A stretch of 64,000 nucleotides of DNA from Azoarcus sp. (GTDB lineage Bacteria > Pseudomonadota > Gammaproteobacteria > Burkholderiales > Rhodocyclaceae): NCBI GenBank assembly GCA_031277415.1, contig JAITMK010000132.1, positions 3,977 to 67,976 of the forward strand, written 5' to 3'. This document shows, one piece after another, positions 31,166-48,582 of this stretch. A program made the translations under genes and the position numbers. Positions within the stretch are counted from its first letter, which is position 1, and the number at the start of each line of letters is the position of its first letter. A model generated the notes under the pieces. The model was not told the DNA's origin. It saw nothing but the letters and a program-made list of their open reading frames with translations, and ran no database searches.

Positions 31166-31200
31166 ATTTTGATGAATTAAGAGAAGTCCGTATGAACGTT
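31166..31200 (-). promoter_or_regulatory. Putative late promoter, copy 3 (tail fibre/lysis)
   Basis: AACGTTCATACGG-N16-CAAAAT. Confidence 0.65.
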
Positions 31201-34200
31201 CAGTAACTGTATTCCTGGTACCCGAACACAGGCGCAAGCGGGTTAGACGTATCTCCCTCTATCATCTTCTCTATACCCTTGTACGATCTATTGAACTGCG
31301 TTGAGGGTAGACCAAGGTAAAGGCCAAGAACTTGAACAAATGATCTCCTGAGCGCACTATCTGCTTCGCCTTGCGATACCTGGATAAGGAAATTTCCAGT
31401 GTCGCCAATGACGCGAACACCAGCAGGGCCAGAGTACCCACGTAACCCCGGAACACCTGTAATCTGACGGGTAACGAAAGATAGCTCTCGCACAACCAGA
31501 AGCGTGCCCATCGCGTATTCAAGGTTGGCGTTCAGTATGCCTCTCAAGAATTTTTCAGGATCGTCCCATTCATCACCACCGCCCGGTATGAGCGCATTCA
31601 TCACGATGTAGGTGAGTATCGCCGGTAGGATAATGATTTGCGCAACGTCCTTTGTTAGGGCCGCGTACTCTGCTGGCGTCTCAGCTAGCATGTACTTGGC
31701 TGCCAGAAGGTTGAATGTACTATTGAAGTACGATGTGAACGGAGAAAGTACCCTCATCAAACCTTTTGAGCGATGCCATGCTGATAAATCCTTTATCTGC
31801 CCGCCTGCCTGAGAATCCAGTACCGCCTGTTCTGCCTGTGCAATGGCAGAAACCTCATCAGCACCGTTTGCAAGGGCTTTAGCTTTTGCACCGTAATATG
31901 TCGGCACGTCAACGAAGCGCTGACAGAATGAGATAAACAGGAACGAGTGATTTCTTATGGATGAAATAATCCCAGGCTCGTTGCTGCGTACCGTGTTCAT
32001 GACTTCGTTTATTTCTCGCATCAGTGTGCGTGCGCGGTTTGCCATCAACAGGCTTTCGTTTGCTGCGGCACGCGCTGCATCAATCGGCCCCATTCTCATG
32101 GATTCAGCCACACCATGCACGATCCACCGTGCACCAACCCTGTTGATACTCTGAACAATCCCGGTGAATTGCAGCGCTGAGGTTGTTGCGCTATAGCCCA
32201 TCGCAGCAATACCGACGTTTCGCGGTAGCCATGCACTTACTTCCTCTCCGTACTTCATAGCAAAAGATTCACCGATGGCGACATCTTTTATCCATTCCTG
32301 GAAACGTTTGTACATTTCCGCGCCACGTGTTTCACGCACTGCATTTTTAAATTCATTTGACCGTATCACTCTATTTGCGTTATGGACGGCCTCACGGTGA
32401 GATATGTCATGAATGATTTCATTCACGCCATTGAAGAGCGTTTGAAGACTAAGCAAGATTGGACGGTCAAACACCTCATTCACGCGCGGCTTTGCAAACG
32501 TTCTTCGCGTTGTAGCGGAAGTATAGGACGCTCTTTGTTCAAGTTTTGCTGTGTCTTCTCTTTCCTGCTGCTCTGCCCTGACGCTTGCTTTCGGGTCGTA
32601 CTTAATCGGGTAGTAACCACCGCGCAAGTGGTGTGTATTGCCTTCAGAATCTGTCACCGTGATTGCCTGCGGCTCTACCCATTGCGGCTCTCTCCCAAGC
32701 ATTCTGCGCTCAAGTGCCGCAATCAGCGGACGGTAAGTTTCGATAAAATCCCATATCTTTTGAACGGCTTCGACAGCTACAGGAGGTAGGTTTTTGAACG
32801 CTTCCTGTACATGCTGTGCTGTAAAGCCGTTACCGCCTTCAATGCGCTGCAAGTTTCCTTTATTCCCAGAATTGAGCGCGATGGAAAAAATTTGCTCCAT
32901 AGTGTAGCGCTTACCATTTCCGATGCTGTACTTCGCCGAGGTGATATTTCCTATGGCCTTCTTGACTGGTTTTAATATCTCATCGAGTGATACAAACCCA
33001 TCATGGCTCATCTGCGCTTTAAGATTCCCAGCATCATTTATGGGTTTGAGGAGCAAATCCCACAGCAACCCACCGTCCACGCCGCCGTCCAGTACGCGAA
33101 CATCCGTCGACGCCTTTATCTGACGAGAAAAGAAAATATCTATAGCCTCTTTCTTTTTCCCCCATGGTGTTGCCGGTGTTTCATTTACCCTTTCTTTTCC
33201 ACGATAGTTCTCACGGATATTTGACTGCATCGCGTCGAGCGAATCCAAAAAACGCTCATCACGCTTTCCTATTGCCGTGATCTGACGTACCGCTTCGCCA
33301 ACATCCAGCGCCTCTTCCAGAGTGAGTTTGCCCCACGGCTTTCTTTCGTTTTCGTCCGTTACGATATCGGCTAAATCGAGTTGTGGGCCTTCATTGTTTT
33401 CAAGCTGTTCCAGCCAGTCAGCAAGCGTCGTACCCTCTCTCGGCATTTCACCGGCAATAAACCTGTCAATGATGCGCCAGACCTGCTCAGAGTATCCAGG
33501 AAGGAGGTGGCGCCCGCGCTTGTTGTGGTTGAGAATGTATTTGTACTCACGCTTCGCACGGTTCAGAACCCTGTTCGCCTCATTTGAGAGCATCTGGTTC
33601 AAAACCTTTGTTCTCGTGAATGCCGCCGCCGTTTCAATGTCGCCTGACCTAAGCGCCTTTTCCGCCTCGGTTGCGTTCTTCTGCGCAGTCGCAGAAAAGC
33701 GTTGCGGATTGATATCATCAATCATCATGCGCGCGATAGCGACACGCGCGTATTCACGCGCTGCCGCGTTCATGAACCGCTGGCCGCCATACGCTTTTTC
33801 GAGCGCCGAAAGTTCTGTCTGAGAGAACCGCACCATTGCATCATTGGCTATCGCCTCATCTGCCGCGCGTTCTATCGCCTGCGGGGTCGCAAGCTCGCCG
33901 TGTTGTTCAAGCATCCGCGCGTCTGCAATTTGCGCAATGGCCTGCTCCGGCGGTGTCGCTGCGGCAAGCGCGTCAACGAGTTCAGCGCCGTTGTCGAACC
34001 CGAACATCCCGGCCACGATTTCAGGATGAAGACCGTCTTTCGCGGTCATGCCGCGTTCTCTCAAATTTGCGGAAGATTCTTTCCCAAAATCATCCAGTGC
34101 GCTAATATCCAACCGGCCAGCGCCAAGAGCCTGCGGGTTAGCAACCTGCTCGCCCGCCATTATCTCTTCAAGTATTCCGTATTCGTATGCGCTCGAATAC

Positions 34201-37200
34201 TGTGGCACCCCACGCAATTCATCGAAGAACGCACTCTCGAAGTACGTATTCGAGAAACTTGGATCATCAGGCAGGTAGCCAAGTTCCGTCAGCGCTTCTT
34301 CCATCTTCGAGACGCTCAATCCGCCCTTGTTGCGGATGACGATCTTCCAGCCCTTCGGAAGTGTTGCCTTCTCTTCCGGCTTTAACCCCCACAGGCTTGC
34401 AAGCTCCTCCCGGTTCATACCGCCAAGTTTCGATATAGCCTCGAACAGCGAATCAATCGATTCATCCACCTTACCGCGTGGCGTTGCTTTGCGTTGCTGT
34501 GGCGGTTTACCAATCCTGTCCTGCGGCCTGAGTGGCGCAGTCAGAAATTGCCATGCGCGATAAACGGGCTGACTCATCACCTCGCGCCGAGCATCCATCT
34601 CAGCCTGCGCGCGCGCCTGCGTTGCTTGGCGTTGTAGCCGCTTTATCTCTCGTCCTCTGGCGTAATGCAACCATCGCATGTCGCGCAGTGCCTTTGCCTG
34701 CATTGCGTCAGTTGCAACGCCTACGGCATCAGAGAACTGCTGCAAATATTCGTCGAACTCTTCCGGAGTCATGTTGGCGAGTTCTGCGTTATCAATCAGA
34801 GGCATCGATCCTCGCGCGCGCATCACTCTATTTATTTCCGCCTCAGAAGCAATCATCCGGTCAAACACGGCTCGTACAGCAGGCGTGAGTGTGACGTTAT
34901 GCGCCTTGAGTGACTTGTAGACGGAGCGGATGAAGTTCGACAGCCGACGAAATGCACGCATCAGCGCGGAAGATGGCGCAACACCCTCATGGATGTACCG
35001 CTCAAACCCTCTTGCAAGCTTCTCATGGTGTGGCGTTTGCTCATCAACCGTCATCTGATTCCACGCATCGATGGACGGCACGCCGAACCAGTCGAGCAAT
35101 GCTTGCGTGTCTTCAATGATTCGCCGCTCGCCTGCTGTGATGTCTGCTTCAGGCTTCATCGTGAATTGCTGCGACAAGTCGGCGTAGATGCTCAGGAACA
35201 TATGCCCGAACTCGTGTATTGCTGTGGATGAATCCTGCGTCTGCGTCAGTAAGATGAGGCGTTCTTCAAAACTCGTAAATCCTCGTGGAACGTCTTGCTG
35301 GACTGACTGGTAATAGTTCTCGCCAAGCCGATTGACAAGACGGGCACGAGAGAATACTCTTCTGCTGCCGTGGGAAAACGAGCCAATGGAATTGTCCCAG
35401 TAACTCCCCATCGCCGAGACCGCCCCCGCCCTTGTGGCCGCTGCGGTCTCACTGTTTTCTGGCCTTGACCTATCTCGTACATACACAGGCGATTTAGTAT
35501 TTGCTTTAAGTAATGCGGCAAGCCTTGCTTTAAGCCTATCCCATCCGCTTTCTACTACATCTCCTGCACCATCAGTAACGTTGTGCTGTGGAGTAATTGT
35601 TCTTATCTCTCCGTTACGGATACCAACGATTATTGGCTCGCCGTTCTGCGTCATCGCGTCAATGAGAACGTTCACACCACCTTCCGGTGCCGGATAGGAA
35701 AGCAACGGATCATGAAGGAAATCTGTAAGGTTCGTCACTACTTCTGACGGTATTTCGTGCCCATGATCACGCACAATCTTCTGCCAGTACGTAGGAGAAA
35801 ATGAAATCTCACCGCTTCTTACGCCCATCTCTCTAAGAACAGCAGGTGTTTTCATGCGTACCGTCTTGCCACGGTTTAGGTCGCCAATAGCATTGCGCCA
35901 GCGCGCAATTTCCGCTTCCAGCGTAGCCTGCGCAGCTTGGCTGAACCCTTCTCCTTGAACAATTCCACGAAGAATCCTGTGACCGTACTGCGCGTAGAAC
36001 GCTTCTGTCGTCACGCCTATATTTTGTGCAATCGTGTTGAACATTGACGAAGCCAATAACGCAACGTCAGCCGACTCTTTCGCCGGTCGGCCTGCCGCCT
36101 CAAGCTGCGTTCGGATATCATCCATGATCACGACACGCTGCGCGTCGAGCGCCGCCAATCTCGCATCCTCTGCCATGGCGCGCTCTATCGTCTCTCTCGT
36201 CTCTGTGTCTGCGTCAAACGCCTCACGCTGTGCGGGCGTTGGGATGTCTGGGTTGAACGTGGTGTGGAGTCGTATTTGATCAATTATTGCACTGTTCGGC
36301 GCTACGTTATTCGCAAACTCACGAAGGGATATCTGAACATACCCGTTTTCAGCAATCGGTTCCTGTAGCTGCTGCGCGGCTTCTGGTGAGACTGCTGAAA
36401 GCTGCTCTGATAGACCTTGCTGTGCAAACGCCTCGGATGAAATATAGACGGTTTCTACTTCGCTTTCTCTTCCTACGGCTTCCACAAAATCTGCGTATGC
36501 TTTTGGATCTCTCCTGATAAGATTAATGTCTTTAGAAAGATTAATTAATTGATCTAAAAGTCGTTGATGAAGTTCAGATACCCCTCCAAGAGATTCTTTT
36601 CTCAGCAGGTTGTCGATGCTACTCATGATAGCAACATTGCCTGCACTTCCGACGATGGTTGCTACAAGCGTCTGATAGGCCGCATCCGGGCGTTCTGAAA
36701 GGTACTCTACAAGATGCTGACCAAAGCCTTTTTCAGGGTGTTGAGCAGCCCGTATAAAAACCTGACGATTAAAATCTTGAATGAGCGTGGTTACTTGCTC
36801 TTGCGGCACCTCTTTCAACATAACATTGAATGCTGTTTTTAAGACGCCTGAGCGGTTAGCAATTCCACTTAGCGCAGCCATAAATGGGGCACGCTCTAGC
36901 AATGCTTCAGGAACGCCTTGTGACAGACCGTACAATGCCGCTCTTCCGGGTGAATAGCCCGCTCTTAATCCTTCTCCGTATTCTTCACCTCCTACCATGC
37001 CGCCAAACATTACCAATGGACCCCATGATCCAGCAGAATAAGCAGGAAGCGACATTACAAACTGCGTTATAGATTCAATGCCAGAATAAATAGCAGATTC
37101 AGTTTTTCCAGGATTTCCTATTACGCGCCAATCCGTGCTCTCTGCACGATGTTTCCATGCTTCTTCGCTTCTCTCCCATACCTTGCCCGCTCTACGAAAA

Positions 37201-37745
37201 GAGTCTTTATGTCCCCCAGGAATAAGATTTAACCACGGGTCAAATATCGGCGATAGAACATTTGTCATTGCAGCAGATATCCAACCGCTAAGACCTTCTT
37301 CACCTCTTAAATATCCTCTACCGGAGGCTCTGCCAATATTACGTACAATCTCCTCTAAACCGCCTAGCATTTCAATATCGTCGTGCGCAATGGCTGCAAA
37401 ATTTGGATCTGTCATTCTCCGCTGAAGTTGCGGGTAGTTCCGCATGACACTTCTTACCGCACGCACACGATTATGGTTGACGTAGGCATCCTGGTTTCTT
37501 TCTATAACAGAGACATCTACGCCGTAAATCTTAGCAAGGTTCTGCGCTTCTGCTGCCTTGTCAGGATTGCGCGGCATCGTCCGCTCAAGATACTCCTGAA
37601 ATTGAGCCGCCTGTTGTTCTTGCTCCTGTCTATGTCTTTTTGCGAAATTCTCAAACCATTCATCTTCAGATAAACGTTTATTTACAATAGGACGGCTTGT
37701 TAAGTCTATATTGCCTTGCTCAATAATATTATCTTGGTTTTCCAT
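31200..37745 (-). CDS. Large internal virion (ejection) protein, T7 gp16-position, polyvalent
   Basis: About 2180 aa; HEFGH zincin motif; BECR/MuF-C-like segment; likely ATG 37745 overlapping upstream stop. Confidence 0.75.
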   Translation of the reverse strand: MENQDNIIEQGNIDLTSRPIVNKRLSEDEWFENFAKRHRQEQEQQAAQFQEYLERTMPRNPDKAAEAQNLAKIYGVDVSVIERNQDAYVNHNRVRAVRSVMRNYPQLQRRMTDPNFAAIAHDDIEMLGGLEEIVRNIGRASGRGYLRGEEGLSGWISAAMTNVLSPIFDPWLNLIPGGHKDSFRRAGKVWERSEEAWKHRAESTDWRVIGNPGKTESAIYSGIESITQFVMSLPAYSAGSWGPLVMFGGMVGGEEYGEGLRAGYSPGRAALYGLSQGVPEALLERAPFMAALSGIANRSGVLKTAFNVMLKEVPQEQVTTLIQDFNRQVFIRAAQHPEKGFGQHLVEYLSERPDAAYQTLVATIVGSAGNVAIMSSIDNLLRKESLGGVSELHQRLLDQLINLSKDINLIRRDPKAYADFVEAVGRESEVETVYISSEAFAQQGLSEQLSAVSPEAAQQLQEPIAENGYVQISLREFANNVAPNSAIIDQIRLHTTFNPDIPTPAQREAFDADTETRETIERAMAEDARLAALDAQRVVIMDDIRTQLEAAGRPAKESADVALLASSMFNTIAQNIGVTTEAFYAQYGHRILRGIVQGEGFSQAAQATLEAEIARWRNAIGDLNRGKTVRMKTPAVLREMGVRSGEISFSPTYWQKIVRDHGHEIPSEVVTNLTDFLHDPLLSYPAPEGGVNVLIDAMTQNGEPIIVGIRNGEIRTITPQHNVTDGAGDVVESGWDRLKARLAALLKANTKSPVYVRDRSRPENSETAAATRAGAVSAMGSYWDNSIGSFSHGSRRVFSRARLVNRLGENYYQSVQQDVPRGFTSFEERLILLTQTQDSSTAIHEFGHMFLSIYADLSQQFTMKPEADITAGERRIIEDTQALLDWFGVPSIDAWNQMTVDEQTPHHEKLARGFERYIHEGVAPSSALMRAFRRLSNFIRSVYKSLKAHNVTLTPAVRAVFDRMIASEAEINRVMRARGSMPLIDNAELANMTPEEFDEYLQQFSDAVGVATDAMQAKALRDMRWLHYARGREIKRLQRQATQARAQAEMDARREVMSQPVYRAWQFLTAPLRPQDRIGKPPQQRKATPRGKVDESIDSLFEAISKLGGMNREELASLWGLKPEEKATLPKGWKIVIRNKGGLSVSKMEEALTELGYLPDDPSFSNTYFESAFFDELRGVPQYSSAYEYGILEEIMAGEQVANPQALGAGRLDISALDDFGKESSANLRERGMTAKDGLHPEIVAGMFGFDNGAELVDALAAATPPEQAIAQIADARMLEQHGELATPQAIERAADEAIANDAMVRFSQTELSALEKAYGGQRFMNAAAREYARVAIARMMIDDINPQRFSATAQKNATEAEKALRSGDIETAAAFTRTKVLNQMLSNEANRVLNRAKREYKYILNHNKRGRHLLPGYSEQVWRIIDRFIAGEMPREGTTLADWLEQLENNEGPQLDLADIVTDENERKPWGKLTLEEALDVGEAVRQITAIGKRDERFLDSLDAMQSNIRENYRGKERVNETPATPWGKKKEAIDIFFSRQIKASTDVRVLDGGVDGGLLWDLLLKPINDAGNLKAQMSHDGFVSLDEILKPVKKAIGNITSAKYSIGNGKRYTMEQIFSIALNSGNKGNLQRIEGGNGFTAQHVQEAFKNLPPVAVEAVQKIWDFIETYRPLIAALERRMLGREPQWVEPQAITVTDSEGNTHHLRGGYYPIKYDPKASVRAEQQEREDTAKLEQRASYTSATTRRTFAKPRVNEVFDRPILLSLQTLFNGVNEIIHDISHREAVHNANRVIRSNEFKNAVRETRGAEMYKRFQEWIKDVAIGESFAMKYGEEVSAWLPRNVGIAAMGYSATTSALQFTGIVQSINRVGARWIVHGVAESMRMGPIDAARAAANESLLMANRARTLMREINEVMNTVRSNEPGIISSIRNHSFLFISFCQRFVDVPTYYGAKAKALANGADEVSAIAQAEQAVLDSQAGGQIKDLSAWHRSKGLMRVLSPFTSYFNSTFNLLAAKYMLAETPAEYAALTKDVAQIIILPAILTYIVMNALIPGGGDEWDDPEKFLRGILNANLEYAMGTLLVVRELSFVTRQITGVPGLRGYSGPAGVRVIGDTGNFLIQVSQGEADSALRRSFVQVLGLYLGLPSTQFNRSYKGIEKMIEGDTSNPLAPVFGYQEYSY

Positions 37746-40047
37746 CCCACGGCTCCGGAACTTCATCATCTGAAGGTATTCTGCCAGGTCTTTCTGGCGT
37801 TTTTATTATTGTTGCACTCATAACGTTTTTATGTTTTGTTTTATCAAGATAATCCCTATATTCTTTAGCAATATAACGCATATTTGCATTCGGGTTAATA
37901 CTTTTTATTTTCTCAACAAAGTCAATAGGAATTGAAGAAATGCGCACTTCACGACCATCATCTAGTTTAATATAAAGATTTCCTTGTTCTCCTTCAGATA
38001 TACCCTTATAAAATGAAATTTCATTATCAGGCGAAAATGTATCACGCCTCATTACTTTATCATCAACAATTCTATTTAGAATTTCATCAAGATCTTTTCC
38101 TGTCGCTGTCCGCCCATTAATTGCTTTAAATTCATAAATTTCTTCCTGTACTCTGTACATAAATTCTATGAATTCCGGCTTCTCTTTTTCATTCTTTTCA
38201 GGCTCTTCGTTAAGTATTCCAATCTTTCTTGCAGTTCTAACAACAAGATTAATATGTGACAACAATTCTATACCTTTATTATTATCTTTATTATCATTGT
38301 TATTATCTTTATTATCATTGTTTATAAGATTTGCGCGCAACTTGGTTATTTCATCAAACTTGTTTCCAAGCCTTGATTTCAGGTTCGTCATTTCTGCATC
38401 AGTCAAGCTTCTCACAACATCATGGTTGGTGATGAGATGGACGTAAATTGCAGGATCTGGATCAGTCGGTCCTTTACGTAGCGCCTCTATCTGGCTCTTT
38501 ACTGATGACCTGTCCGTCTCGTGAATAGCCTCCCTGATAGACATGGGTAGTTCGTCGAACTTAAGCCCGGTTTGCTCGGAGTATCGTATCGCTGCTGCTT
38601 TTGCTTCTTCTCGCTCTTGCTTGACAGCATCATTCTGCGCCGTGTGCCGTTCTTTTACGTATTCAATTGCCCGTTTTCGTGCACGAGATGATAGGCCAGA
38701 AGCGTCTATATGCTCGATATATCCTTCAAGCGTTGGTCTTGCTGGCCTACCTCCTCCGCTTCCGAGTAAGCGCATGTTCTTCTCAACGTAGTCTTTCGTT
38801 TGCTTCCTGTTATCAGGCGTTCTATCATCGTTATTAAGCTGCCAGAACCAGTCGGATTCCTGTGTCCCTTGTTCTGCCTTTTTAGCCTTGGATACAGCAG
38901 CGTCAACCCACTTCTCTCCAGCGTTGTACGCTGCCCATGCCTTACCGATATTCCCGCCATACTTATCGACAAGTGCGGCAAGAAGCTCACTGCCTACCCG
39001 GTTATATTCTTCCGGTGTATCGTTTTGCGCTGGCTTTATACCGTGCCCAGGTTTTTTAGCCGTATCCGGCATGACCTGCATTTTGTACATTGCGCCAACT
39101 GGTGATCGCACAGGCTGACCACCTTCAATAAAATCCCTGTTACCGCTTTCTGACTGAGCGGTAATATTAAGCACCCTATCAAAATCGTTAGGTTTATACG
39201 CTTTCTCTCTATCTGAAATAAGAGTACTACCGAAAGCAATTCCTTTTTCATCCTCAACGAAATTAGATAAGGTGATATTATCCTTTATCTTATGCTGATG
39301 CTCCATGCCGCCATTGAACTGGTTGAAGTACGCAACCGCTCCGACCAAGTCGCCTTCATCTATCATCGCATTCAGGTTGTTCGAGTGCGCAGCAGAGACA
39401 ACGCCCTTCGCCTTCCTTCTCGCCTCGTCAATGTGCATCCCTGTGATAGACGAAAACCGCTCCGCCTCTTCAATGGCGCGTCGAGAGGCAGTTTCGACCG
39501 CTTCCGGGTCATTCCTCAACGCGATGATCTCGTCCGCAGCCTGCGCGATAATCGCCTGAGAGGCGCTTGCTTTCCACTTCTGCGCCTCGTTGTGCTCATG
39601 GCGCATCGCGCCCTCTTTGAAGCGCAAGAGTTCTTTTTGCTTGAACGCCTCGAAATACGCTCGCTGTCTGTCGTTTCCGAGCCCTCTTGAAACCTCAGCA
39701 CTGAATTCATCAAGGCGCTTCGTGTATTCATCAGAGAGTGCCTTACCCTCTTTTGGCAGCGCTGCTGCACCTTGCAGTGCGCCATATCCGTCCTGGCCTA
39801 ACTGCAATTCTATGGCCTTTTGCCGCACCTCTCGCGCTGCGTCATCCAAGCGCAGATTGTCCATTTCGTCACGGCGCTCATTTTCAATCTTGAAGAGCGC
39901 ACGCCCTGCATCGGTCATCACGCCCGCAAGCTGTGCATGTTGTGCAGATGGGTCTACGGACGGTACAGCAGCATGAAACCGGTTAGCTGTAGGTTGATTC
40001 AGCCCGACTGACGGCGCGTTATCGTTATAGGTGGGTACAGTTGGCAT
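37729..40047 (-). CDS. Internal virion protein with lytic transglycosylase (SLT) domain
   Basis: MPTVPTY start typical of this family; AQSES, MQVMPDTA, AYNAGE SLT motifs. Confidence 0.8.
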   Translation of the reverse strand: MPTVPTYNDNAPSVGLNQPTANRFHAAVPSVDPSAQHAQLAGVMTDAGRALFKIENERRDEMDNLRLDDAAREVRQKAIELQLGQDGYGALQGAAALPKEGKALSDEYTKRLDEFSAEVSRGLGNDRQRAYFEAFKQKELLRFKEGAMRHEHNEAQKWKASASQAIIAQAADEIIALRNDPEAVETASRRAIEEAERFSSITGMHIDEARRKAKGVVSAAHSNNLNAMIDEGDLVGAVAYFNQFNGGMEHQHKIKDNITLSNFVEDEKGIAFGSTLISDREKAYKPNDFDRVLNITAQSESGNRDFIEGGQPVRSPVGAMYKMQVMPDTAKKPGHGIKPAQNDTPEEYNRVGSELLAALVDKYGGNIGKAWAAYNAGEKWVDAAVSKAKKAEQGTQESDWFWQLNNDDRTPDNRKQTKDYVEKNMRLLGSGGGRPARPTLEGYIEHIDASGLSSRARKRAIEYVKERHTAQNDAVKQEREEAKAAAIRYSEQTGLKFDELPMSIREAIHETDRSSVKSQIEALRKGPTDPDPAIYVHLITNHDVVRSLTDAEMTNLKSRLGNKFDEITKLRANLINNDNKDNNNDNKDNNKGIELLSHINLVVRTARKIGILNEEPEKNEKEKPEFIEFMYRVQEEIYEFKAINGRTATGKDLDEILNRIVDDKVMRRDTFSPDNEISFYKGISEGEQGNLYIKLDDGREVRISSIPIDFVEKIKSINPNANMRYIAKEYRDYLDKTKHKNVMSATIIKTPERPGRIPSDDEVPEPWDGKPR

Positions 40048-40061
40048 AAATTACGCCTCGA

Positions 40062-40282: not shown

Positions 40283-40286
40283 TTTG

Positions 40287-40907
40287 TCACCACCTTCTAA
40301 AAAGACCTTCGCCAAAACCGCTTGGCGGGATGATCCCAGTGCCGCCATTCATACCAATAGCGGGCTGGCTACCGCCAGAAGCAGTGATGGACGAAGGTGT
40401 CGTGTTTTGCGGATTCAGCGCGTACCAGCTTGCAGCAACCTGTGTCGCGCCACCGAGCAGCGACGTAATGCCTGCCATCGCAGGGCTTACAGCGCCAGCA
40501 GACGAAGATAACGCGCGAGATTGCGCAACGTAGTTCATTCCCTCGACGCGATGCCCCCACGCGCTCATGTCCGCGTTGTAGAGGATAGTCCCCTTATCGA
40601 TGTCTTTGAGCAGTTCCGCGTCAGCAAGGGTCTGTCTGTCAATCTTTGTGCCGCTTGCACCCATCGCCGCGCGCTGCTTCCCCATCAACTGACCAGCGCG
40701 CATCGTGAGTTGCATGACTTGATGCTGGCCTTGCATCATCGCGCCCTGTGCGGATAGCTCAGAAAGTCGCGCGTTGATTTCCGCCATTGCGGATTGATGC
40801 TTCAGGATATTTTTTTGATTTTTTGCGCTAATGTACGATGAGAACGCGCTATTGATTGCGCCCAACCCCATAACATACGGCGAATAATTTGTTGTCATAT
40901 TATCCAC
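40287..40907 (-). CDS. Internal virion protein (T7 gp14-position)
   Basis: Ala/Gly-rich, QRAAMGASG motif, position after tail tube genes. Confidence 0.7.
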   Translation of the reverse strand: MDNMTTNYSPYVMGLGAINSAFSSYISAKNQKNILKHQSAMAEINARLSELSAQGAMMQGQHQVMQLTMRAGQLMGKQRAAMGASGTKIDRQTLADAELLKDIDKGTILYNADMSAWGHRVEGMNYVAQSRALSSSAGAVSPAMAGITSLLGGATQVAASWYALNPQNTTPSSITASGGSQPAIGMNGGTGIIPPSGFGEGLFRRW

Positions 40908-42951
40908 CTACCGATACTTCAGCGACGATATTAGACAGCGTAAGAGGTAGCGGGTCACGTTGCTGTACGACAATTCGGCCATGCTCGCCCCATGACGGAG
41001 ATAGGAGTAGATCAATCTCTCCCGTCCTGATCCGTGGCGGCGACCCCATCGGTTCATCTGTCCTTTGTTTGTACATAACAAGTTCATCAGCAGACGGACC
41101 CGCCCAAATACCGGATGATCGAACCGTCCTGAGTTTCACCCTGTTCACATTCTTCGTCCTGCCAAGGCCAAGCGCATGATCTATCTGCGCGGCAATCGGC
41201 AAGGTTTCAATCTCTGAAACGTATGGGAGCCCGATGTGAACGACGCTTGCCGGGTAGTCAATCGTCACGCTACCGCCTGTGACAATTTTTCGCGGAAAGA
41301 CCTTTCCATCCCCAATGATCGATACCTCTTCTCCCTCCAGATGGTCAAGACCTATAAATACATCCTCTGGTTCACCCCTATACGTAAGACCAGAATCAAC
41401 AAAAAAAGCATCTTCAAGGCTATTGAACATCCGGTCTTCAAGACATTCGACGTACCTTACCGTTTGCCCGTTTATTTCACGCCGGACAATCACGTAAGTA
41501 ACATCGCGCTCTTCTTCTGCTACAACACAAAGCGACTCGAAATCTCCCTTTGTCTCATGAACATGCCATGCTGCGATCTGTTGTTCTGGGATGTATGTCA
41601 TCCCAAGCATAACGCCTGACACCATCACGCAGAAGGCTACAGGTATCGGAGCTTTTGAGAGCGCCATCACGCTGATATAGTCATGTTCGAATAGATGCGA
41701 AGCCCTGAGTGAGATATCTGAATTTTTCCACCCGTTAGCCTGCCCTCCATAGCCAAGCTCACGAACATGTCCACCTCGCGAAGCGCTATACAGGATGATA
41801 TTGTTCACCACAATCGGGCGAACTTCTGATGATCCTTCGTATGCCTGCGGAATAACATTGAAAGATGTTTGCGTTATCGCGTCGCTATTAACAGACGTGA
41901 CGATGTATTCAGCGCTTGATGTCAGAAGAACAAGGCTTGTTATTGGAACCATATGAAGGATGTCGCTCATATGGAGCGCGGCAACTTCCTTGCTTATCCT
42001 GTCGTCGTCACGCATCGGCCTTCTAAAACTCAAGGACGATTCTGTCCCGGTCTTCGTCATCCAGATTCGCTGCGGCCTGTACTTTGTGCTTGCGAACGCA
42101 CGACGTTGCTCGAAATAGGTTGTCGTCCTTGGGTAATTACCGTTTCCAGAAAATACGTTTTCGTATATCGGCGGCGTCATCGACATGTCAGGAGAGATAT
42201 TGTCATCGATGATGGATAGCTCGCCATTCGTCTGCCCGATATACCCTAGTAGCCCGGCTTTCATCTTGTACACAAAATATTGTGTCGCGCCAGAGACTGC
42301 CTGCCATGAAATGATGTTTGATGCGCCATTTTCGAATAGGTTGCCGTTCACCTTGGTTATTACAGAAGCAACGGACTCGTATCCGTCTGAGGTTGCCGCT
42401 GTTACCGCATAAGCTATTTCAAACTGTGTTCCTGTCTGGTTCAATTTCTGCACTGTCGGCGCAGGTGGCGGTAAGATTGTCGGCGAGAAAATGATTGCCT
42501 CAATCCTCCAGTCTGTCGCGCCGTAGCGCCTCAACTCCATCGGCGGGTAGTTCTGATGAACCAATGTCAGCACGTCCTCTTTTTGGACGTACTGAAGGTT
42601 CATCAGGTCACCTTCCTGGTACGGTGACGCAATTTCGTAGGGTTCACCATTTGAACCAAGTAGCGTTTTCGCTTGCGTGTGGAATCTGAAGTACTGGTGT
42701 CCAGCCTCAATTGCCATCGTCTGCGTCAGAGAGAACGTAAACGGGATCATCGCCGCGCGCCGGTCGTTGTATTTCGCAGGACGAACAAACCGCAGCCCTG
42801 CCCTATTCTCTACGGGCCCTTGAGGTCTCACAATGAAGTTCACGCATTTCGCTAAACCTGATTGATATTTCGCATCATCCGGGCGACCAGACATTTCAGG
42901 ACTGACAACACCACCTGAAAACGAAAGCTGAACGGTCCTGATCGACGGCAT
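40900..42951 (-). CDS. Tail tubular protein B / nozzle (T7 gp12-like)
   Basis: SFSGGVVSPEMSGRPDD, YFEQRRAFA, IAAWHVHET, VHIGLPY, QRDPLPLTL. Confidence 0.85.
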   Translation of the reverse strand: MPSIRTVQLSFSGGVVSPEMSGRPDDAKYQSGLAKCVNFIVRPQGPVENRAGLRFVRPAKYNDRRAAMIPFTFSLTQTMAIEAGHQYFRFHTQAKTLLGSNGEPYEIASPYQEGDLMNLQYVQKEDVLTLVHQNYPPMELRRYGATDWRIEAIIFSPTILPPPAPTVQKLNQTGTQFEIAYAVTAATSDGYESVASVITKVNGNLFENGASNIISWQAVSGATQYFVYKMKAGLLGYIGQTNGELSIIDDNISPDMSMTPPIYENVFSGNGNYPRTTTYFEQRRAFASTKYRPQRIWMTKTGTESSLSFRRPMRDDDRISKEVAALHMSDILHMVPITSLVLLTSSAEYIVTSVNSDAITQTSFNVIPQAYEGSSEVRPIVVNNIILYSASRGGHVRELGYGGQANGWKNSDISLRASHLFEHDYISVMALSKAPIPVAFCVMVSGVMLGMTYIPEQQIAAWHVHETKGDFESLCVVAEEERDVTYVIVRREINGQTVRYVECLEDRMFNSLEDAFFVDSGLTYRGEPEDVFIGLDHLEGEEVSIIGDGKVFPRKIVTGGSVTIDYPASVVHIGLPYVSEIETLPIAAQIDHALGLGRTKNVNRVKLRTVRSSGIWAGPSADELVMYKQRTDEPMGSPPRIRTGEIDLLLSPSWGEHGRIVVQQRDPLPLTLSNIVAEVSVGG

Positions 42952-42953
42952 AA

Positions 42954-43547
42954 TTAGCGCCTCGCTCTAATCCAAGGTGCTTCATCAGTGATCTTTTGAT
43001 GCCCTTGGTTTGCGTCGCTGGCTGCTGCAATCGACAATGCAAGCTGGTACGCCTGCAAACATCGCTTTGCGTGCTCTGCGCCCGTTCCGCCCTTGTAGAT
43101 CGCTCCAGCAAGTTCTGAGGCAAGCAGCCATGCCAGCGCATCAATGGCAGCCGGGGGGTATTTTGTGGTGTCCTCTTCGCGTCGAATGAACAGCATGAAC
43201 GCGCCTTCTGCGTTCGTCATGACGATGTTGCCTTCTATCGCGTACTCTTGCCTGACATCCATTACGCCCTGCACGCAATACACTTCAAGGCAGCGTATGA
43301 AATGGTTCGGCAGCGCATACGACATCGACCATTCCCCAGGCTGATCTTTCGCCTTCAGTGCAAGGCGATCCCGCGTTGTGGCAAATCCCCAAGCGTGGTG
43401 CTCCAGAAACCTGTCTCTGGTCTGTGCGAAAAAAGCCGCACACAGATAAGCTTGCGTAGATCCTTCTGGCGGATCAATTGAGGAGACGTGCGCCGCTTCG
43501 CCGAGCCTGCTTAACGCAAGATTGCAGATTTCGACGGGCGACGCCAT
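42954..43547 (-). CDS. Tail tubular protein A / adaptor (T7 gp11-like)
   Basis: VEICNLALSRLG, HAWGFATTR, LAWLLASELA. Confidence 0.82.
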   Translation of the reverse strand: MASPVEICNLALSRLGEAAHVSSIDPPEGSTQAYLCAAFFAQTRDRFLEHHAWGFATTRDRLALKAKDQPGEWSMSYALPNHFIRCLEVYCVQGVMDVRQEYAIEGNIVMTNAEGAFMLFIRREEDTTKYPPAAIDALAWLLASELAGAIYKGGTGAEHAKRCLQAYQLALSIAAASDANQGHQKITDEAPWIRARR

Positions 43548-43559
43548 AGAACACCTCCA

Positions 43560-43733
43560 TTAATTCTTTTGGCGAGATTCTTTCTCGGATGTTTTGGCTT
43601 CCTGCTCTTGTTTTTGTATTGGTGCGAACCATGAGGCGGTTTCACCGTCCTTCACATCGAATACCTCAGTATTCTTTCCAGGCTCTCGCAAAACGCCGCC
43701 GTAGTATCCTTTTTTGATCGCTCTCACTTTCAT
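43560..43733 (-). CDS. Small virion-module protein
   Basis: MKVRAIKKGYYGGVLREPG...FDV...ASWF; GAGG RBS; conserved position. Confidence 0.6.
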   Translation of the reverse strand: MKVRAIKKGYYGGVLREPGKNTEVFDVKDGETASWFAPIQKQEQEAKTSEKESRQKN

Positions 43734-43740
43734 GGCTTCC

Positions 43741-44151
43741 TCACGCAGGCGGGATCTCTTCGTTGCCGGTTGTGAAACCGGCGGTGACTGTACCGGCGGT
43801 CGGCGTGCCGCCAGTGGCGGTGTACTGCGCACGCAGATAGCGTTTCGTCACACCATAAGGCAACTCACGGTAAATAGCGCGAGACCCTGCCGTAACGCCG
43901 TTGAACGGTATCGTTGCCACCGTGACAGGCGTAGTAAAGGCTTCCGTGTCTGAGGTTTGCAGTACGAGGTTCATACCGGTTGCGCCGATGATGTTCGCCG
44001 TCACCTGCGCAAGAAATGGAATACCGTTCCATGCCTTGTCGAAGGTTCCATCCAGCGTCGATCCGAGATCGATGATGTTCTCTGACGTGACCGTCGCAGC
44101 GGCAATCGTCTGGTTGTAGGAAAGGCTGTTTTGTTTGCTCATGATGGTCAT
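43741..44151 (-). CDS. Capsid cement/decoration protein (Bbp16-like)
   Basis: SENIIDLG, RYLRAQYT..G..TAGTVTAG; follows capsid gene. Confidence 0.75.
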   Translation of the reverse strand: MTIMSKQNSLSYNQTIAAATVTSENIIDLGSTLDGTFDKAWNGIPFLAQVTANIIGATGMNLVLQTSDTEAFTTPVTVATIPFNGVTAGSRAIYRELPYGVTKRYLRAQYTATGGTPTAGTVTAGFTTGNEEIPPA

Positions 44152-44162
44152 GCTTGTTCTCC

Positions 44163-45248
44163 TTACACAACGCGCGCTTCGGTGTTCAGAAGGGCGTCAG
44201 AGACAACGATTTCATGTTTTCGGAAAGTCTCGATCATCTGGCCTTCCACGTCGGACACAGTGGTAATCCTGCGGAAGTTATCGAACGCGCCCTTGTTGAT
44301 CTGCTGAAGATCGATTGCTTCCATCACATCCGTGTTGCAGTAGATGTAAGTGCGACCGATCAGCGCGAGCATTTCAGCCATATCGTCTTCACTGATACCC
44401 GGAATACTTCCGCGTCCCTTGTGAATTCGCCGCTTCGTAGCGAAGTGTCGGTAATACCCGTTGATGAGGAACTTGTAGATATCGACCGTACCGGCGCGAA
44501 GCGCGCTGATGTCGATGTTGGCAAGACGCACGACGTAGCGCGGATCGGCCACGTACATACCAACATTCATCTCGATGAAGTCTTTGACGCCAGGGTATTC
44601 ATTCCGGCCTTCATCGACGATTGTAATCGGCTTATCGACCGTGCCTTCTGTCGTATGCCGTATGCCCTTCATCGTTTCCTGCGGGTAGAAGCACCCCGCC
44701 TGATTCTCGCCCTGCGTAACAAACCAGATGGATGTGTTTTCGTTACCAGTTCCGCCGCAGTCGATTATCTGACTTCCCCACGGGTCTGTACCGAGATTGT
44801 TAAATCGCGGCGTCAACCCCTTAAACTGCTCCGGTGCGCCCTCCGTGTTGCCATACCAGAAACCGGATTCGAGGGTTTGAACCATCCCCTCGATGTGATT
44901 AACGCCGCTCTTGAAACGCTTGTGAACCTGCGCGTCACGCTCAAGTCTCAGGAGTGCCTGTACGTCGATTTCCCACCTATCGGCGAGGATTGCGCAAGTA
45001 TCCGTGATGCGCTGCGTCCTGCCTTTCGTCGGCGGAACACCTTGGTACAGACGCCGAAACATCGGTTCCGGCATGGACACCTGCATGTCCGTTTCATGTT
45101 TATCTCCGTTCGTCGCCTGCGTCCAGTAGGCTGTTGCGACAAACCCAGAAAGACCCGCCATCAGATTGACAAACGGTCGAACTCGTTTGTAACCATCCTG
45201 GTCTTTGATGTCCGAAATATCGGTGAAATACCCGCCAACCGTTGCCAT
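44163..45248 (-). CDS. Major capsid protein (Bbp17-like)
   Basis: FRRLYQGVPPTK, FWYGN, SIWFV, PRYVVRLANID, DALLNTEARV. Confidence 0.88.
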   Translation of the reverse strand: MATVGGYFTDISDIKDQDGYKRVRPFVNLMAGLSGFVATAYWTQATNGDKHETDMQVSMPEPMFRRLYQGVPPTKGRTQRITDTCAILADRWEIDVQALLRLERDAQVHKRFKSGVNHIEGMVQTLESGFWYGNTEGAPEQFKGLTPRFNNLGTDPWGSQIIDCGGTGNENTSIWFVTQGENQAGCFYPQETMKGIRHTTEGTVDKPITIVDEGRNEYPGVKDFIEMNVGMYVADPRYVVRLANIDISALRAGTVDIYKFLINGYYRHFATKRRIHKGRGSIPGISEDDMAEMLALIGRTYIYCNTDVMEAIDLQQINKGAFDNFRRITTVSDVEGQMIETFRKHEIVVSDALLNTEARVV

Positions 45249-45251
45249 TTT

Positions 45252-45860
45252 TTAACCTCCGTCTCCGTAAATCTGTTGGGCAAAACTCTTCTTCTCTTTC
45301 GATGGAGAGCCGCCTACAAACTTATCCTCGCTGATGCCTTTACCGACTTTCGCGAGAAATTTGATAAACCCAGGGTGATTTCCGAAGACAGATCCGCCTA
45401 TTTCTTTGACGAACGCTTCATCCGCATAGGCGCTGATCGCCTTCTTTGCAAGCGACAGAGATTCGTTCAGGTTGTCGCCGCCGAACTCCTTGTCCGCTTT
45501 GAATTCTTCAGACCACTTACTTCCAAGGCTCCTAGCCTGCCGCGCGGCAAGGCCAGACATTGCGCCTGAGAGTTTCTGTGCAACCTTCCCAGCCGCGTCT
45601 TGCGGCATATTTGCCTCGCGTGCCGCCTCCTCGAATGCCGTGCGGAACTCATCATCCGCCTGAAAGCCATCTGCAAAGGCGAAAGGCTCGTACTTCTCCG
45701 GCGCGCCCTGTGGCTCTTGTGCCTTTTCATCCGACAGATTTCCATCATCATTTTTCTGACCAAGAAGTGAGGATTTCTCGTTTCCGTTTTGTTCTTCGAC
45801 GATGCCTTCCTCGTTCTGCTGTTCACTTCCTTCGTCAATATTTGAATCGTCACTCATCAT
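45252..45860 (-). CDS. Capsid scaffolding protein
   Basis: Acidic N-terminus, APEKYE, DKEFGG, GNHPGFIKFLAKVGK..SED. Confidence 0.75.
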   Translation of the reverse strand: MMSDDSNIDEGSEQQNEEGIVEEQNGNEKSSLLGQKNDDGNLSDEKAQEPQGAPEKYEPFAFADGFQADDEFRTAFEEAAREANMPQDAAGKVAQKLSGAMSGLAARQARSLGSKWSEEFKADKEFGGDNLNESLSLAKKAISAYADEAFVKEIGGSVFGNHPGFIKFLAKVGKGISEDKFVGGSPSKEKKSFAQQIYGDGG

Positions 45861-46116
45861 TTACCCCTAAGACCTCTGCCAAAACACTCGGGAAGGCTTC
45901 TTTTATCGCTGAAAGTAGCTCTACGCCGACTGACCTTCTACCTTCTGAAAATGCAGCCATTGCTGCATCTGTGTGAAACGTTGTATGAAATACCCCGCAC
46001 GAAAACAAAATTCTTTTGAACACGTTGATACCGTGCCGCGTTGATAAGACATTGCGCAATTCATGCGCCGCTTCATCGGCGCGCAACTTAGACTCAGCGT
46101 AATTTTGCGTATCCAT
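45850..46116 (-). CDS. Bbp19-like conserved phage protein
   Basis: VFKRIL..CGVF...F.EGRRSVG motif between portal and scaffold. Confidence 0.72.
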   Translation of the reverse strand: MDTQNYAESKLRADEAAHELRNVLSTRHGINVFKRILFSCGVFHTTFHTDAAMAAFSEGRRSVGVELLSAIKEAFPSVLAEVLGVNDE

Positions 46117-46122: not shown

Positions 46123-46157
46123 ACATTGCCATAGCTATAAAAGCCCGTATGAACGTT
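46123..46157 (-). promoter_or_regulatory. Putative late promoter, copy 2 (capsid operon)
   Basis: AACGTTCATACGG-N16-CAATGT-N6-ATG. Confidence 0.7.
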
Positions 46158-46158
46158 T

Positions 46159-47805
46159 TCACATGCCTGCCATTTGCGTTAGCGCGTTGTCTCCGGACAT
46201 ATCCGCGCTGCTCAGCTTTGCGGCAATATCCGCGCCTTGCTGCATTGCCATCGCTTGTTTCGCGGCCTGCTCCTGCTCTGCGCGCTGCTGCCTGATAATG
46301 GCCGCCTGCGGACCTGCAACGATGATTGACGGATCAACCCCTTCCGCGTCTGATACAACATCCACCCATCTGTCTGCGTCAAACCTGTCAAGCACTTCCG
46401 GTTTGATTTCTGAAATCATTCCAAGCTTCGAGACAAAGCGATCTGTTGCGGCCAATCCGAACGCGCGCTGCGACTGCGCCAACATGGAGATGTATTCGAC
46501 GGAGAGTTCCTGTCCTTGGATCTCAGGTGGAGGCGGCGGCAGGATGCCAGCACGAAGTGCCTTCATGAAGGTCAAATTAACCAGCGGTTCAAGTATCTCT
46601 GCCTGTTGACGCTCTAGCACAGGGCCGAGCACCATCAACTTTTCGACTTCGCGCGCGCTAATCTCTCGCGCCGTTTTCTGCTGATCTCCGCCTTCTGCGA
46701 TCATGAGGATTACGTTCGTATAGAGCGCGTCATGTATGCGTTTACGAACATCCTCAATGTCTTGCAAAAGGTATGATAAATTCATGTATCGCGCATCAAA
46801 CACAGGCTGTGCAGCAGTCTGTGCGGCAGCGTTACCGAAAACTGCGCTACCGGGGCGCGTATCCAGTAAGGAATCCTTGAAGTTTGCCGGGTAGATGATC
46901 GCCGGATCTGTTTGCCAGTCGATACCCTTAGATTTGCGCAATTGCTCATGCTGGAGCTGTTTTATGTCGCCGAGAGCGTCCATTACCGGGGAATCCCCGT
47001 AGACGTCTGGCGGGCGAACGATCCAGCGCGGGCAGAGCGCTGGAAAATCTTCGTATCCAGACTCGCGCAGCACAACGCATTTATCGCCATCTCTTTCTAT
47101 GTAAACAGAGCGCCATCGCATGTTGAGGTTGTCGCGTTTTCGCGTATCCCTTCCGCGCCGTGGCTCGATAGCGTGAAGAACTGTTACCCAATAATCGTAC
47201 TCGCGCGATTCGTAACGTCGCCTGACATAGCCGCTTACATTATTGATACCGAACGTCTCGACAAGTTGCGATACGGTCATATCGAACTCGCGGTATAGAG
47301 TATCGACTTGTCCGAGGCTGTCGCACGCAAACGCATACTCACCCACTGTGAGCGTGTGATTATGTATCACTGTGCGGTAATTATCGTCGATGATGTCTGA
47401 CGCCTGACCGTATACGATTTGCTCTTCGTACAGGCTGTGTAGCGCGCGGTATGTGTTCGACTTTGCGAAGATCATGAACTGCGCCGTCTCGACCTTTGAT
47501 AACCACGTTTTGACGGCGTGCGATTCATCAAGCTCCGGCGATGAGGTTGTAAGCCTCATCCACTTTGATGCCGGGCTGGACATTCCCGCTACCATCGCAG
47601 CGGCGAGCGTCCGAACTGCGCGCGTTACTGTGTTATCAAGTATCTCGTTTGACCTGTCGCCGCCACGGTTACGGTCACTCGCGAGAAAACGACCAGAACG
47701 AGGGAAAACAAGCTTGCTTGATTGCCGCCACCCAAGCTCGTAGCTGGAACGCTCGGACAGCAATCTATGCCATCTGTTTCGTATGTCTTGAGCAATGCAG
47801 CGCAC
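46159..47805 (-). CDS. Portal (head-to-tail connector)
   Basis: AGMSSPASKW, VDTLYREF, YGDSP.MDALGDIKQLQ, REVEKLMVLGPVLER; likely GTG 47805. Confidence 0.9.
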   Translation of the reverse strand: MRCIAQDIRNRWHRLLSERSSYELGWRQSSKLVFPRSGRFLASDRNRGGDRSNEILDNTVTRAVRTLAAAMVAGMSSPASKWMRLTTSSPELDESHAVKTWLSKVETAQFMIFAKSNTYRALHSLYEEQIVYGQASDIIDDNYRTVIHNHTLTVGEYAFACDSLGQVDTLYREFDMTVSQLVETFGINNVSGYVRRRYESREYDYWVTVLHAIEPRRGRDTRKRDNLNMRWRSVYIERDGDKCVVLRESGYEDFPALCPRWIVRPPDVYGDSPVMDALGDIKQLQHEQLRKSKGIDWQTDPAIIYPANFKDSLLDTRPGSAVFGNAAAQTAAQPVFDARYMNLSYLLQDIEDVRKRIHDALYTNVILMIAEGGDQQKTAREISAREVEKLMVLGPVLERQQAEILEPLVNLTFMKALRAGILPPPPPEIQGQELSVEYISMLAQSQRAFGLAATDRFVSKLGMISEIKPEVLDRFDADRWVDVVSDAEGVDPSIIVAGPQAAIIRQQRAEQEQAAKQAMAMQQGADIAAKLSSADMSGDNALTQMAGM

Positions 47806-47806
47806 G

Positions 47807-48097
47807 TTATCCGCCGAGCAGGCTGTTTCCGCCGAGCGGCATACCACCTGATATGCCACCTGGTCCAGTTAATGACGTTGCGCTTACATCATCTCCAAAA
47901 TCAAGCAATGATGATTGACGCTGATTCTCGCGATTCCATCGTTCAGCTTGCGCGTCTTCAGCAGCTTTTGCCGCTTTTTGCGAATCGCTCTGTTGCCTCT
48001 TCATCGCAGATTCTTGTTTACTTGCTTGCCTATGTTGGCTGTAGGCGCTTCCGGCTGATACTGCTGCCATAATACCTAATGCTACTGCTTGAGGCAT
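47807..48097 (-). CDS. Small virion protein upstream of portal
   Basis: Hydrophobic N-terminus, Gln/Ala coil, SLTGPGG...LLGG C-terminus. Confidence 0.65.
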   Translation of the reverse strand: MPQAVALGIMAAVSAGSAYSQHRQASKQESAMKRQQSDSQKAAKAAEDAQAERWNRENQRQSSLLDFGDDVSATSLTGPGGISGGMPLGGNSLLGG

Positions 48098-48541
48098 TTA
48101 TAATCTCCTCATAAAAATACGTCCGGATTCTTTGAAAAGCTTGCTTCTCTCCATTGCTTTATGGAGGACTCCACCGGTTGGCGCGGTAACAACATATGAC
48201 CTTGCGCCAATCTCTTTAGCGATCCTTCCAGAACGCCTAAGTAATGACGCGCCCGCACCGGTATTTCTGTATTTATTACGAACGAAAAGCGCCTCAGTGA
48301 AGGCGTCTATCCGGTCATACTGGAGTTGATGAAAAACCGTTAAGATGCAAAACCCGACGATCTCTCCGTTTACATATGCACACAAAAGGATTGCAATACC
48401 TGCATCCTCAAGTTGTTTATAAGCATCAATATTTGGTTCGGGATTACCAAAACTTGAAGCCTCACGCGCGTACTCAGTGAGAAGCGTGTTTACATCAGCT
48501 TGCGCAAGTGCCTCATCGAATGTTGTTTGCCTTATATCCAT
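48098..48541 (-). CDS. GNAT-family acetyltransferase
   Basis: LFVRNKYRNTGAGASLL acetyl-CoA binding motif A. Confidence 0.78.
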   Translation of the reverse strand: MDIRQTTFDEALAQADVNTLLTEYAREASSFGNPEPNIDAYKQLEDAGIAILLCAYVNGEIVGFCILTVFHQLQYDRIDAFTEALFVRNKYRNTGAGASLLRRSGRIAKEIGARSYVVTAPTGGVLHKAMERSKLFKESGRIFMRRL

Positions 48542-48547
48542 AGGAAA

Positions 48548-48582
48548 ACAATGGCACAGCGCCGAAAGCCCGTATGAACGTT
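48548..48582 (-). promoter_or_regulatory. Putative late promoter, copy 1 (GNAT-portal)
   Basis: AACGTTCATACGG-N16-CATTGT-N6-ATG. Confidence 0.7.

Follow-up and report, generated by a model that had tools for sequence, protein, structure and literature searches.

A 13-nt sequence, hereafter the box, is repeated three times in the late operon of a prophage within a 64,000-nt window of an Azoarcus sp. contig (JAITMK010000132.1, positions 3,977 to 67,976), and we consider it probable that each box forms the upstream part of one of three internal late promoters, activated by a small Bbp27-like helix-turn-helix (HTH) protein and with the box standing in for the -35 hexamer. The prophage takes up the minus strand of the window from ~59 kb down to ~25 kb, and is recognisable from its genes as a temperate BPP-1-like podovirus with T7-like virion genes.

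An exact search returned three copies of the box (AACGTTCATACGG), all on the minus strand (sites S1, S2 and S3, Table 1), which are those reported in a preliminary description of this DNA. As reported there, each directly follows a stop codon, that of terL (no gap), of the portal gene (gap of 1 nt) or of the gene for the large ejection protein (1-nt overlap), and each is followed by a -10-like hexamer (CATTGT, CAATGT and CAAAAT, respectively) at a distance of exactly 16 nt. S1 and S2 are identical over 20 nt (AAAACGTTCATACGGGCTTT) and S3 agrees at 16 of 17 positions (AACGTTCATACGGaCTT), while the three sites occupy the three largest intergenic gaps (41, 42 and 66 nt) of the operon running from terS to the fibre gene. 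There were no further copies with up to one mismatch in the window, and box-like matches with two or three mismatches were at chance level; the sole copy with two mismatches (AGCGTCCATACGG, 51596-51608) is on the plus strand within a plus-strand open reading frame (ORF), and was judged to be a chance match. The copy number by itself is only moderately improbable, given that 4 of 40 dinucleotide-shuffled versions of the window contain at least one 13-mer triple, and it is the placement, the spacing and the family comparison which make chance untenable. The remaining 13-mers with at least three copies in the real window are all coding tandem repeats inside one host gene (4330-5754, plus strand), where the repeat unit is ~129 nt (43 aa).

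A detail going beyond the preliminary description is that the predicted transcription start (+1) at S1 and S2 (48541 and 46116) coincides with the A of the start codon ATG of the gene downstream, and that both of these genes lack a Shine-Dalgarno (SD) sequence. This arrangement, in which the predicted +1 falls on a start codon without an SD, as expected of a leaderless mRNA, was found at S1, at S2 and at 50 sites in the family described below. The sites also have the make-up of activator-dependent (class II-like) σ70 promoters, i.e. a hexamer with A-11 and T-7 placed 6-7 nt before the start, and a -35 element which is absent or replaced. A scan for consensus σ70 promoters found no TTGACA-type promoter at S1-S3, as expected for promoters without a -35, and σ54, σ28, σ32 and extracytoplasmic function (ECF)-type patterns, compared by eye only, did not fit any of the three sites. 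Among viral contigs, AACGTTCATACGGRCTT had a single exact match, located in a coding ORF of an unrelated contig and attributed to chance.

The layout in BPP-1 and its relatives

Phage BPP-1 has a 13-mer of its own, GGGTGCCCGTGCC, which is present in four copies. Three of these directly follow stop codons, at the terL/GNAT, bbp20/bbp19 and bbp10/bbp9 junctions (bbp10 encoding the large protein and bbp9 the fibre), and the fourth is found before terS, just inside the annotated terS start. At each copy the layout consists of the box, N15, a TAnnnT-type hexamer (TACTGT, TAGAGT or AAAACT), 6-7 nt and an ATG without SD. About 20 further, metagenomic relatives each have their own box of 11-14 nt at the same gene junctions as BPP-1, and the layout for the family can be written as box, N15-17, (T/C/G)AnnnT, N6-7 and ATG, again without SD. 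The boxes include AGTTGCCTTAC in L003 and L007, AG(G)TGCGCGTGA in L012 and L013, AGGTGTACGT in L010 and L014, and GGTGCGCATGAC in L024, the nearest relative, while those of other relatives include GGGGTGTGCATACC, GAAGTACGCGTATCG, GGTGCACGTGACG, AGTTTCCATAAC, GTTCGCGTACC, CCGTACATAGCCC, GGTACCCGTAAC and GTGTAGTTACGC. The preliminary description had looked to conservation of the motif in related prophages, and it is the layout that recurs at the same junctions, whereas the box sequence differs from phage to phage. Similarly, the CGT-N4-ACG dyad noted earlier is present in the window box but absent from the boxes of the relatives, and is probably incidental.

This layout was also searched for with an automated scan of 103 loci, which looked for 9-mers present in two or more copies, with nAnnnT-N6-7-ATG downstream of them at a constant distance. 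The scan was positive for 32 of the 103 loci on the gene strand, compared with three on the reverse complement and four to eight in dinucleotide shuffles. Among 73 box copies from 24 loci, nAnnnT was present at the expected offset (±1) in 71, compared with 9% at control offsets; 41 of these 71 hexamers begin with T, and in 50 of the 71 an ATG was located 6-7 nt past the hexamer. The ATGs downstream of the boxes start full-length homologous ORFs with aligned N-termini, as seen for terS, GNAT, the Bbp19-like proteins (MSNYDPTD...) and the fibre (MTISST...), and whereas the box-proximal genes lack an SD, clear SDs precede the remaining late genes of the window and of BPP-1. Several relatives retain the box and hexamer within the last codons of the terL coding sequence, which indicates that the constraint acts at the DNA level.

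With regard to the boxes themselves, the only core common to the whole family is a GT located 26/25 nt upstream of the hexamer (~-38/-37), with a second block, (G/A)T(A/G), six bases past the GT in most boxes. In the window box the GT is in register and the second block is two bases closer (GTTCATAC), as is also the case in L084 (GTACATAG). Unlike BPP-1, the window phage and L024 do not have a box before terS.

The layout also bears on gene annotation. In BPP-1 (L030, NC_005357, 26253-26318) the fourth box lies inside the annotated coding sequence of terS (bbp26), with a predicted leaderless ATG at 26255, and the annotated start at 26318 is thus probably 21 codons too early. The gene calls of L024 likewise extend into the promoter, with GNAT called at 4325 where 4337 would be expected and Bbp19 at 8010 instead of 8043. 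The searchable literature gave no description of late promoters or their regulator in the BPP-1 group, of Bbp27 function or of leaderless late genes, with the 2004 BPP-1 genome paper (Liu et al.) being outside that search.

The Bbp27-like HTH protein as candidate activator

While the preliminary description did not name an activator, the family comparison points to a candidate, the 66-aa HTH protein encoded directly upstream of terS (MTTGITNGNAKLSDSDVRNMRELRHVHGMSYGKIAEKFEICRSTAYYVCNFMSRAIIGRITYKVKH), which is the window homologue of BPP-1 Bbp27 (annotated as 'endonuclease'). Every informative relative has an ORF of 60-80 aa directly upstream of the first box, and in a profile search a Bbp27-like HTH was found upstream of terS/terL and on the same strand in 83 of the 103 loci. 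The first box abuts the stop codon of the HTH gene in BPP-1, L003, L007, L010, L012-14 and others, and in most relatives the 3' end of the HTH gene abuts or overlaps this box. In the window and in L024 it is the terS start which overlaps the HTH stop (TTGA and ATGA, respectively), so that activator and terminase form one unit.

The Bbp27-like profile matches 1061 proteins in a public collection, none of which has been given a functional name, while a word-based homologue search with the window protein returned only itself. Its predicted structure has three helices (residues 14-25, 31-37 and 42-50), with a predicted local distance difference test (pLDDT) score of 82-90 in the core, and resembles the DNA-binding domains of σ region 4, resolvase and DeoR. 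Similarly, the family gives generic matches to HTH_38, resolvase HTH_7, Sigma70_r4, DeoR, ECF σ region 4 and KorA, none of them significant, and sequence and fold searches of the PDB returned generic HTH matches only. There was no match of the HTH family to Mor/C, Ogr, Q, RinA or ArpU in Pfam and NCBIfam, with Pfam searched over 62 members.

A link between protein and box is suggested by their covariation. In 23 phages the distance between boxes correlates with the distance between recognition helices (Mantel r=0.45, p=2e-4, not corrected for shared ancestry), while helix 2 shows no correlation (r=0.05, p=0.33) and the N-terminal part a weaker one (r=0.22, p=0.06). Individual pairs of helix and box are SKGYVS with AGTTnCCnTA, SKSSVAKIC with AGGTGTACGT and KRTVRDIC with AG(G)TGCGCGTGA, and the phages with SKGYVS all have AGTTnCCnTA despite differing in terL type.

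In the mechanism we propose, the HTH protein would bind the box at about -41 to -29, in place of the -35 hexamer, and would recruit or stabilise host σ70-type RNA polymerase reading a minimal -10, which is CAnnnT in the window and TAnnnT in most relatives, with transcription predicted to start 7 nt past the hexamer. At S1 and S2 this start would be the A of the ATG, making the GNAT-to-portal and Bbp19-to-ejection-protein messages leaderless, whereas at S3 it would give a 26-nt leader in which the SD is free only in promoter-initiated RNA. The latter follows from a predicted hairpin at S3 (Table 1), since its 5' arm is located upstream of the predicted +1 and thus would occlude the fibre SD and AUG only in read-through RNA; analogous hairpins span the -10 at site 3 of BPP-1, L003 and L007, with that of BPP-1 being terminator-like. 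The activator would be co-transcribed and translationally coupled with terS and terL in the window phage, and the boxes are therefore predicted to raise the expression of virion proteins after, and above, that of the terminase. The late regulon proposed in the preliminary description is strongly supported by the sequence comparison for the head, capsid/tail and fibre/lysis blocks, which in BPP-1 and ~20 relatives have activator-dependent, phage-specific promoters predicted at the same junctions, but terS and terL fall outside the box-controlled regulon here.

A wider generalisation is possible but doubtful, namely that Bbp27-like proteins act as minimal surrogates of σ region 4, in which a 60-aa HTH at the -35 would re-target the host holoenzyme to a box private to the phage, with an orthogonal activator/promoter pair in each BPP-1-like phage and in some satellite-like islands, a readable helix-to-box code, and late virion messages that would be obligately leaderless.

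Two observations concern the surroundings of the HTH gene. In the divergent region upstream of the unit formed by the 60-aa ORF, the HTH gene and terS, which is the presumed promoter region of this unit, there are two perfect DnaA boxes (TTATCCACA, 20 nt apart, 50808-50836 on the minus strand), with ACCCACA just before the ATG at 50785 and a further location noted at 56967-56975, and repeats are also found upstream of the HTH gene in relatives (a large palindrome in BPP-1, five copies of TTTGTCGGT in L003). The DnaA boxes may mark an origin, or may serve replication-coupled control of the activator. Furthermore, a Bbp27-like HTH of 80 aa is encoded in a small, satellite-looking island of Cupriavidus necator H850 (L111, GCA_009663695.2, 10001-10450), together with an integrase, AlpA, a primase, an AAA_25 protein, a tail-spike-like protein and an Sf6-type small terminase, and this HTH gene is followed by GGTGCACGTATC-N16-TACAAA-N5-ATG, so that satellites may carry or exploit a late switch of the Bbp27 type.

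Alternative readings and known late-gene switches

Several points weigh against the proposed promoters and their activator. The first base of the window hexamers is C instead of T and a -35 is lacking, the 3' half of the window box deviates from the family consensus (GTTCATAC versus GTGCGCGTAC), and a box is absent before terS in the window. The fold and family matches of the HTH are generic and not significant, and the window protein has neither the conserved C-terminal RYERR nor a close homologue. The Mantel test is uncorrected for phylogeny and the box seeds used were picked by eye after the automated scan. Finally, we infer from sequence that the promoters are active, where transcription starts, that the control is positive and not negative, which protein binds the box and that translation is leaderless.

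The identity of the binder matters most for the reading, to which we give a small but real chance, that the promoters are genuine and phage-specific but that the box is read by another phage or host factor, with the HTH having its role elsewhere, for example in packaging specificity near terS. Binding of the box by the HTH is a prediction only, in PHROG the protein matches 'endonuclease/HNH' families located near terminases, over their HTH portions, and the translational coupling to terS in the window and L024 would suit a role in packaging; however, the box covaries specifically with the recognition helix, most relatives have an HTH gene that abuts the first box, and in the gene lists, which are all that was compared, BPP-1 and the window have no other small DNA-binding gene in common besides cI/Cro. 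It is quite unlikely that the box is instead an operator, through which the HTH represses promoters that are otherwise constitutive and gives negative timing. None of the sites has a σ70-like -35 and an extended -10 is not general, which means that without a factor they would be very weak promoters, and the phage-specific sequence is exactly at the -35 position. This has to be set against the fact that small HTH proteins are often repressors and that a site over the -35 can block polymerase, but the HTH gene is also the last gene before terS, as for the late activators RinA/Ltr and lambda Q.

An element acting in the RNA, such as a site of processing or a signal by which translation re-initiates past the stop codon, would account for all three boxes touching a stop codon and for the next ATG lacking an SD at S1 and S2. 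We consider this very unlikely, as S1 and S2 do not fold better than shuffled sequences (z = -0.17 and -0.44) and no common structure was found, Rfam has no family at S1-S3, and the element conserved between box and ATG is a hexamer with A at position 2 and T at position 6, at promoter spacing. Moreover, in relatives the box may be inside coding sequence or far from a stop, and its adjacency to stop codons can be ascribed to tight gene packing. Extremely unlikely, in our view, is that the boxes are landmarks for recombination or packaging (module boundaries or pac-like sites) or a chance repeat, since this leaves unexplained the fixed spacing of hexamer and ATG, the three to four copies on one strand per genome and a phage-specific sequence which covaries with the HTH helix, even though the sites are at module junctions, the terL types vary among the relatives in a way which suggests mosaicism, and a 13-mer triple is seen in about 10% of shuffled windows.

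Returning to activation by the Bbp27-like protein, the closest functional analogue is the RinA/ArpU/Ltr superfamily (RinA, ArpU, the Sigma70_r4-like LtrA, the DUF1492 protein LtrB, and LtrC), which consists of late activators of Gram-positive phages (PMC3152322, PMC3753634). The proposed switch shares with it a small activator gene that closes the early/replication region and immediately precedes terS, a DNA-binding domain resembling σ region 4 and the phage-specific recognition of late promoters, which in the Ltr proteins is without cross-reaction. In contrast, the Ltr activators are larger two-domain proteins that bind 7-nt direct repeats ahead of one terS promoter, whereas here there is a single HTH of 60-80 aa, a box at the -35, three to four promoters per genome, first genes predicted to be leaderless, and Gram-negative hosts. 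The gene order of the Ltr type, with the activator next to terS and a late promoter in between, is found in the family, while the window has no box at that position. With regard to sequence, NCBIfam gave no match to RinA (TIGR01636) or ArpU (TIGR01637), Pfam DUF1492 matched the window protein only (E=0.04), and Sigma70_r4 was below threshold in the 15 of 62 family members where it was found.

Other phage switches resemble the proposed one in part. In T4 middle promoters an activator box also replaces the -35 while a minimal σ70 -10 (TAnnnT) is kept, with MotA being a 211-aa two-domain protein which needs the co-activator AsiA and has its box centred near -30; an AsiA-like partner was not identified here, although no systematic search for one was made. 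The comparison with Mu C, P2 Ogr and P1 Lpa made in the preliminary description holds as an analogy but not as a relationship, as the HTH protein does not match any of these families. Mu Mor/C, P2/P4 Ogr/Delta and P1 Lpa likewise serve several dispersed late promoters whose upstream site is phage-specific and whose -35 is poor or missing, but belong to other folds and families, and the box described here is asymmetric: the site of the dimeric Mor/C is a dyad, Ogr, a zinc finger, recognises TGT-N12-ACA near -55, and the Lpa site is near -22. Membership of Mor/C was rejected for want of a Pfam match among the 62 members, the window dyad also being absent in relatives, and that of Ogr/Delta because there is no match to the zinc-finger Ogr_Delta family and the predicted fold is an all-helical HTH.

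Promoters of the T7 type were considered as well, given the T7-like virion module and a phage-specific sequence of ~20 nt recurring before late gene blocks, and were rejected, as a phage RNA polymerase gene is lacking (no ORF in the prophage fits such an enzyme in size or family, and the BPP-1 annotation does not include one), and a σ70-type -10 is conserved instead. Lambda Q is similar in that its gene is located between the replication/nin region (here RusA) and terS, but Q acts at one promoter with a pause site and a terminator, while here three to four sites run into coding sequence. Antitermination of this type was rejected, with no room for a pause site or terminator at the boxes and no Q-family match in the ORFs between RusA and terS, in line with the preliminary description, which had recognised no Q-like gene.

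Prophage context and significance

The positions of the boxes, the hexamers and the genes discussed are given in Table 1. The order of the virion module is that of BPP-1 (Head-tail_con portal, Bbp19, GP7 capsid, Bbp16, tail tubular B, gp14-like protein, SLT and large LPD protein). The window portal is 52% identical to the BPP-1 portal and 61% to that of the nearest relative in the searched collections, and judged by such divergence the window phage is too distant from BPP-1 for its genus (Rauchvirus-related group). A scan of genome contigs with tail tubular B gave one distant relative only, and the window sequence was found only in termite-gut DNA metagenome runs.

Table 1. Location of boxes, hexamers, genes and predicted units in the window (unit extents and +1 positions are predictions)
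Feature	Position	Strand	Remarks
Box S1	48570..48582	minus	AACGTTCATACGG; terL stop TAA 48585-48583, gap 0 nt; predicted -41 to -29
Box S2	46145..46157	minus	portal stop TGA 46161-46159, gap 1 nt (one A)
Box S3	31188..31200	minus	stop TGA 31202-31200 of 2189-aa LPD22 protein; A of TGA is first base of box
S1 -10-like hexamer	48548..48553	minus	CATTGT, then 6 nt, then ATG 48541 (predicted +1), start of GNAT gene; no SD
S2 -10-like hexamer	46123..46128	minus	CAATGT, then 6 nt, then ATG 46116 (predicted +1), start of Bbp19-like gene; no SD
S3 -10-like hexamer	31166..31171	minus	CAAAAT; predicted +1 31159; 26-nt leader, SD GGTGA (31141-31137), fibre ATG 31133
Predicted RNA hairpin at S3	31130..31175	minus	z = -2.3; 5' arm 31175-31161 upstream of predicted +1, pairs with fibre SD and AUG
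60-aa ORF	50603..50785	minus	first gene of HTH-terS-terL unit; no SD, 6 nt after AAAACT
Candidate activator	50428..50628	minus	66-aa Bbp27-like tri-helical HTH; stop overlaps terS TTG start (TTGA)
terS	50024..50431	minus	Terminase_2; no preceding box in this phage
terL	48583..50082	minus	ends at box S1
S1-driven unit (predicted)	46159..48541	minus	GNAT acetyltransferase (48541-48098), 96-aa ORF, portal (to 46159)
S2-driven unit (predicted)	31200..46116	minus	Bbp19-like, scaffold/protease, GP7 major capsid, Bbp16-like, tail tubular A and B, gp14-like, SLT internal protein, 2189-aa LPD22 protein
S3-driven unit (predicted)	26757..31133	minus	tail fibre (31133-28974), 264-aa protein, lysis genes (lysozyme-like 27905-27366)
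CI-like S24 repressor	56750-57448	plus	in the prophage, along with DUF1376 replication protein and RusA

Some further features of the prophage were observed. The 3' end of a serine recombinase ORF (25158-26672) overlaps tRNA-Glu(TTC), which is adjacent to tRNA-Ala(GGC) (both tRNAs within 25035-25198), and because of this overlap tRNA-Glu is the probable attachment site and boundary of the prophage. Five small genes of low GC content (0.47), located between RusA and the late operon, run against the flow on the plus strand (50962-52675) and are moron-like, and within this block, at ~51750-51900, there are hairpins which by eye resemble bidirectional terminators. Inside the late operon, a hairpin with a 16-bp stem (40242-40276) is located at the 21-nt gap between a 67-aa ORF and the gp14-like gene, and could act as an attenuator or serve to stabilise the RNA.

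If the proposed reading is correct, these sites would represent the late-gene switch of the BPP-1 group, to which the model phage for diversity-generating retroelements belongs, and a protein family of more than 1000 members without functional annotation would gain a function. The start sites of several genes, such as terS of BPP-1, would be corrected, and Proteobacteria phages would have leaderless late mRNAs, which are unusual there. The family would also provide a natural set of small, mutually orthogonal activator/promoter pairs with their specificity apparently contained in one helix, and the rule that a late activator is encoded upstream of terS, established in Gram-positive phages, would reach a Gram-negative group with a different architecture.

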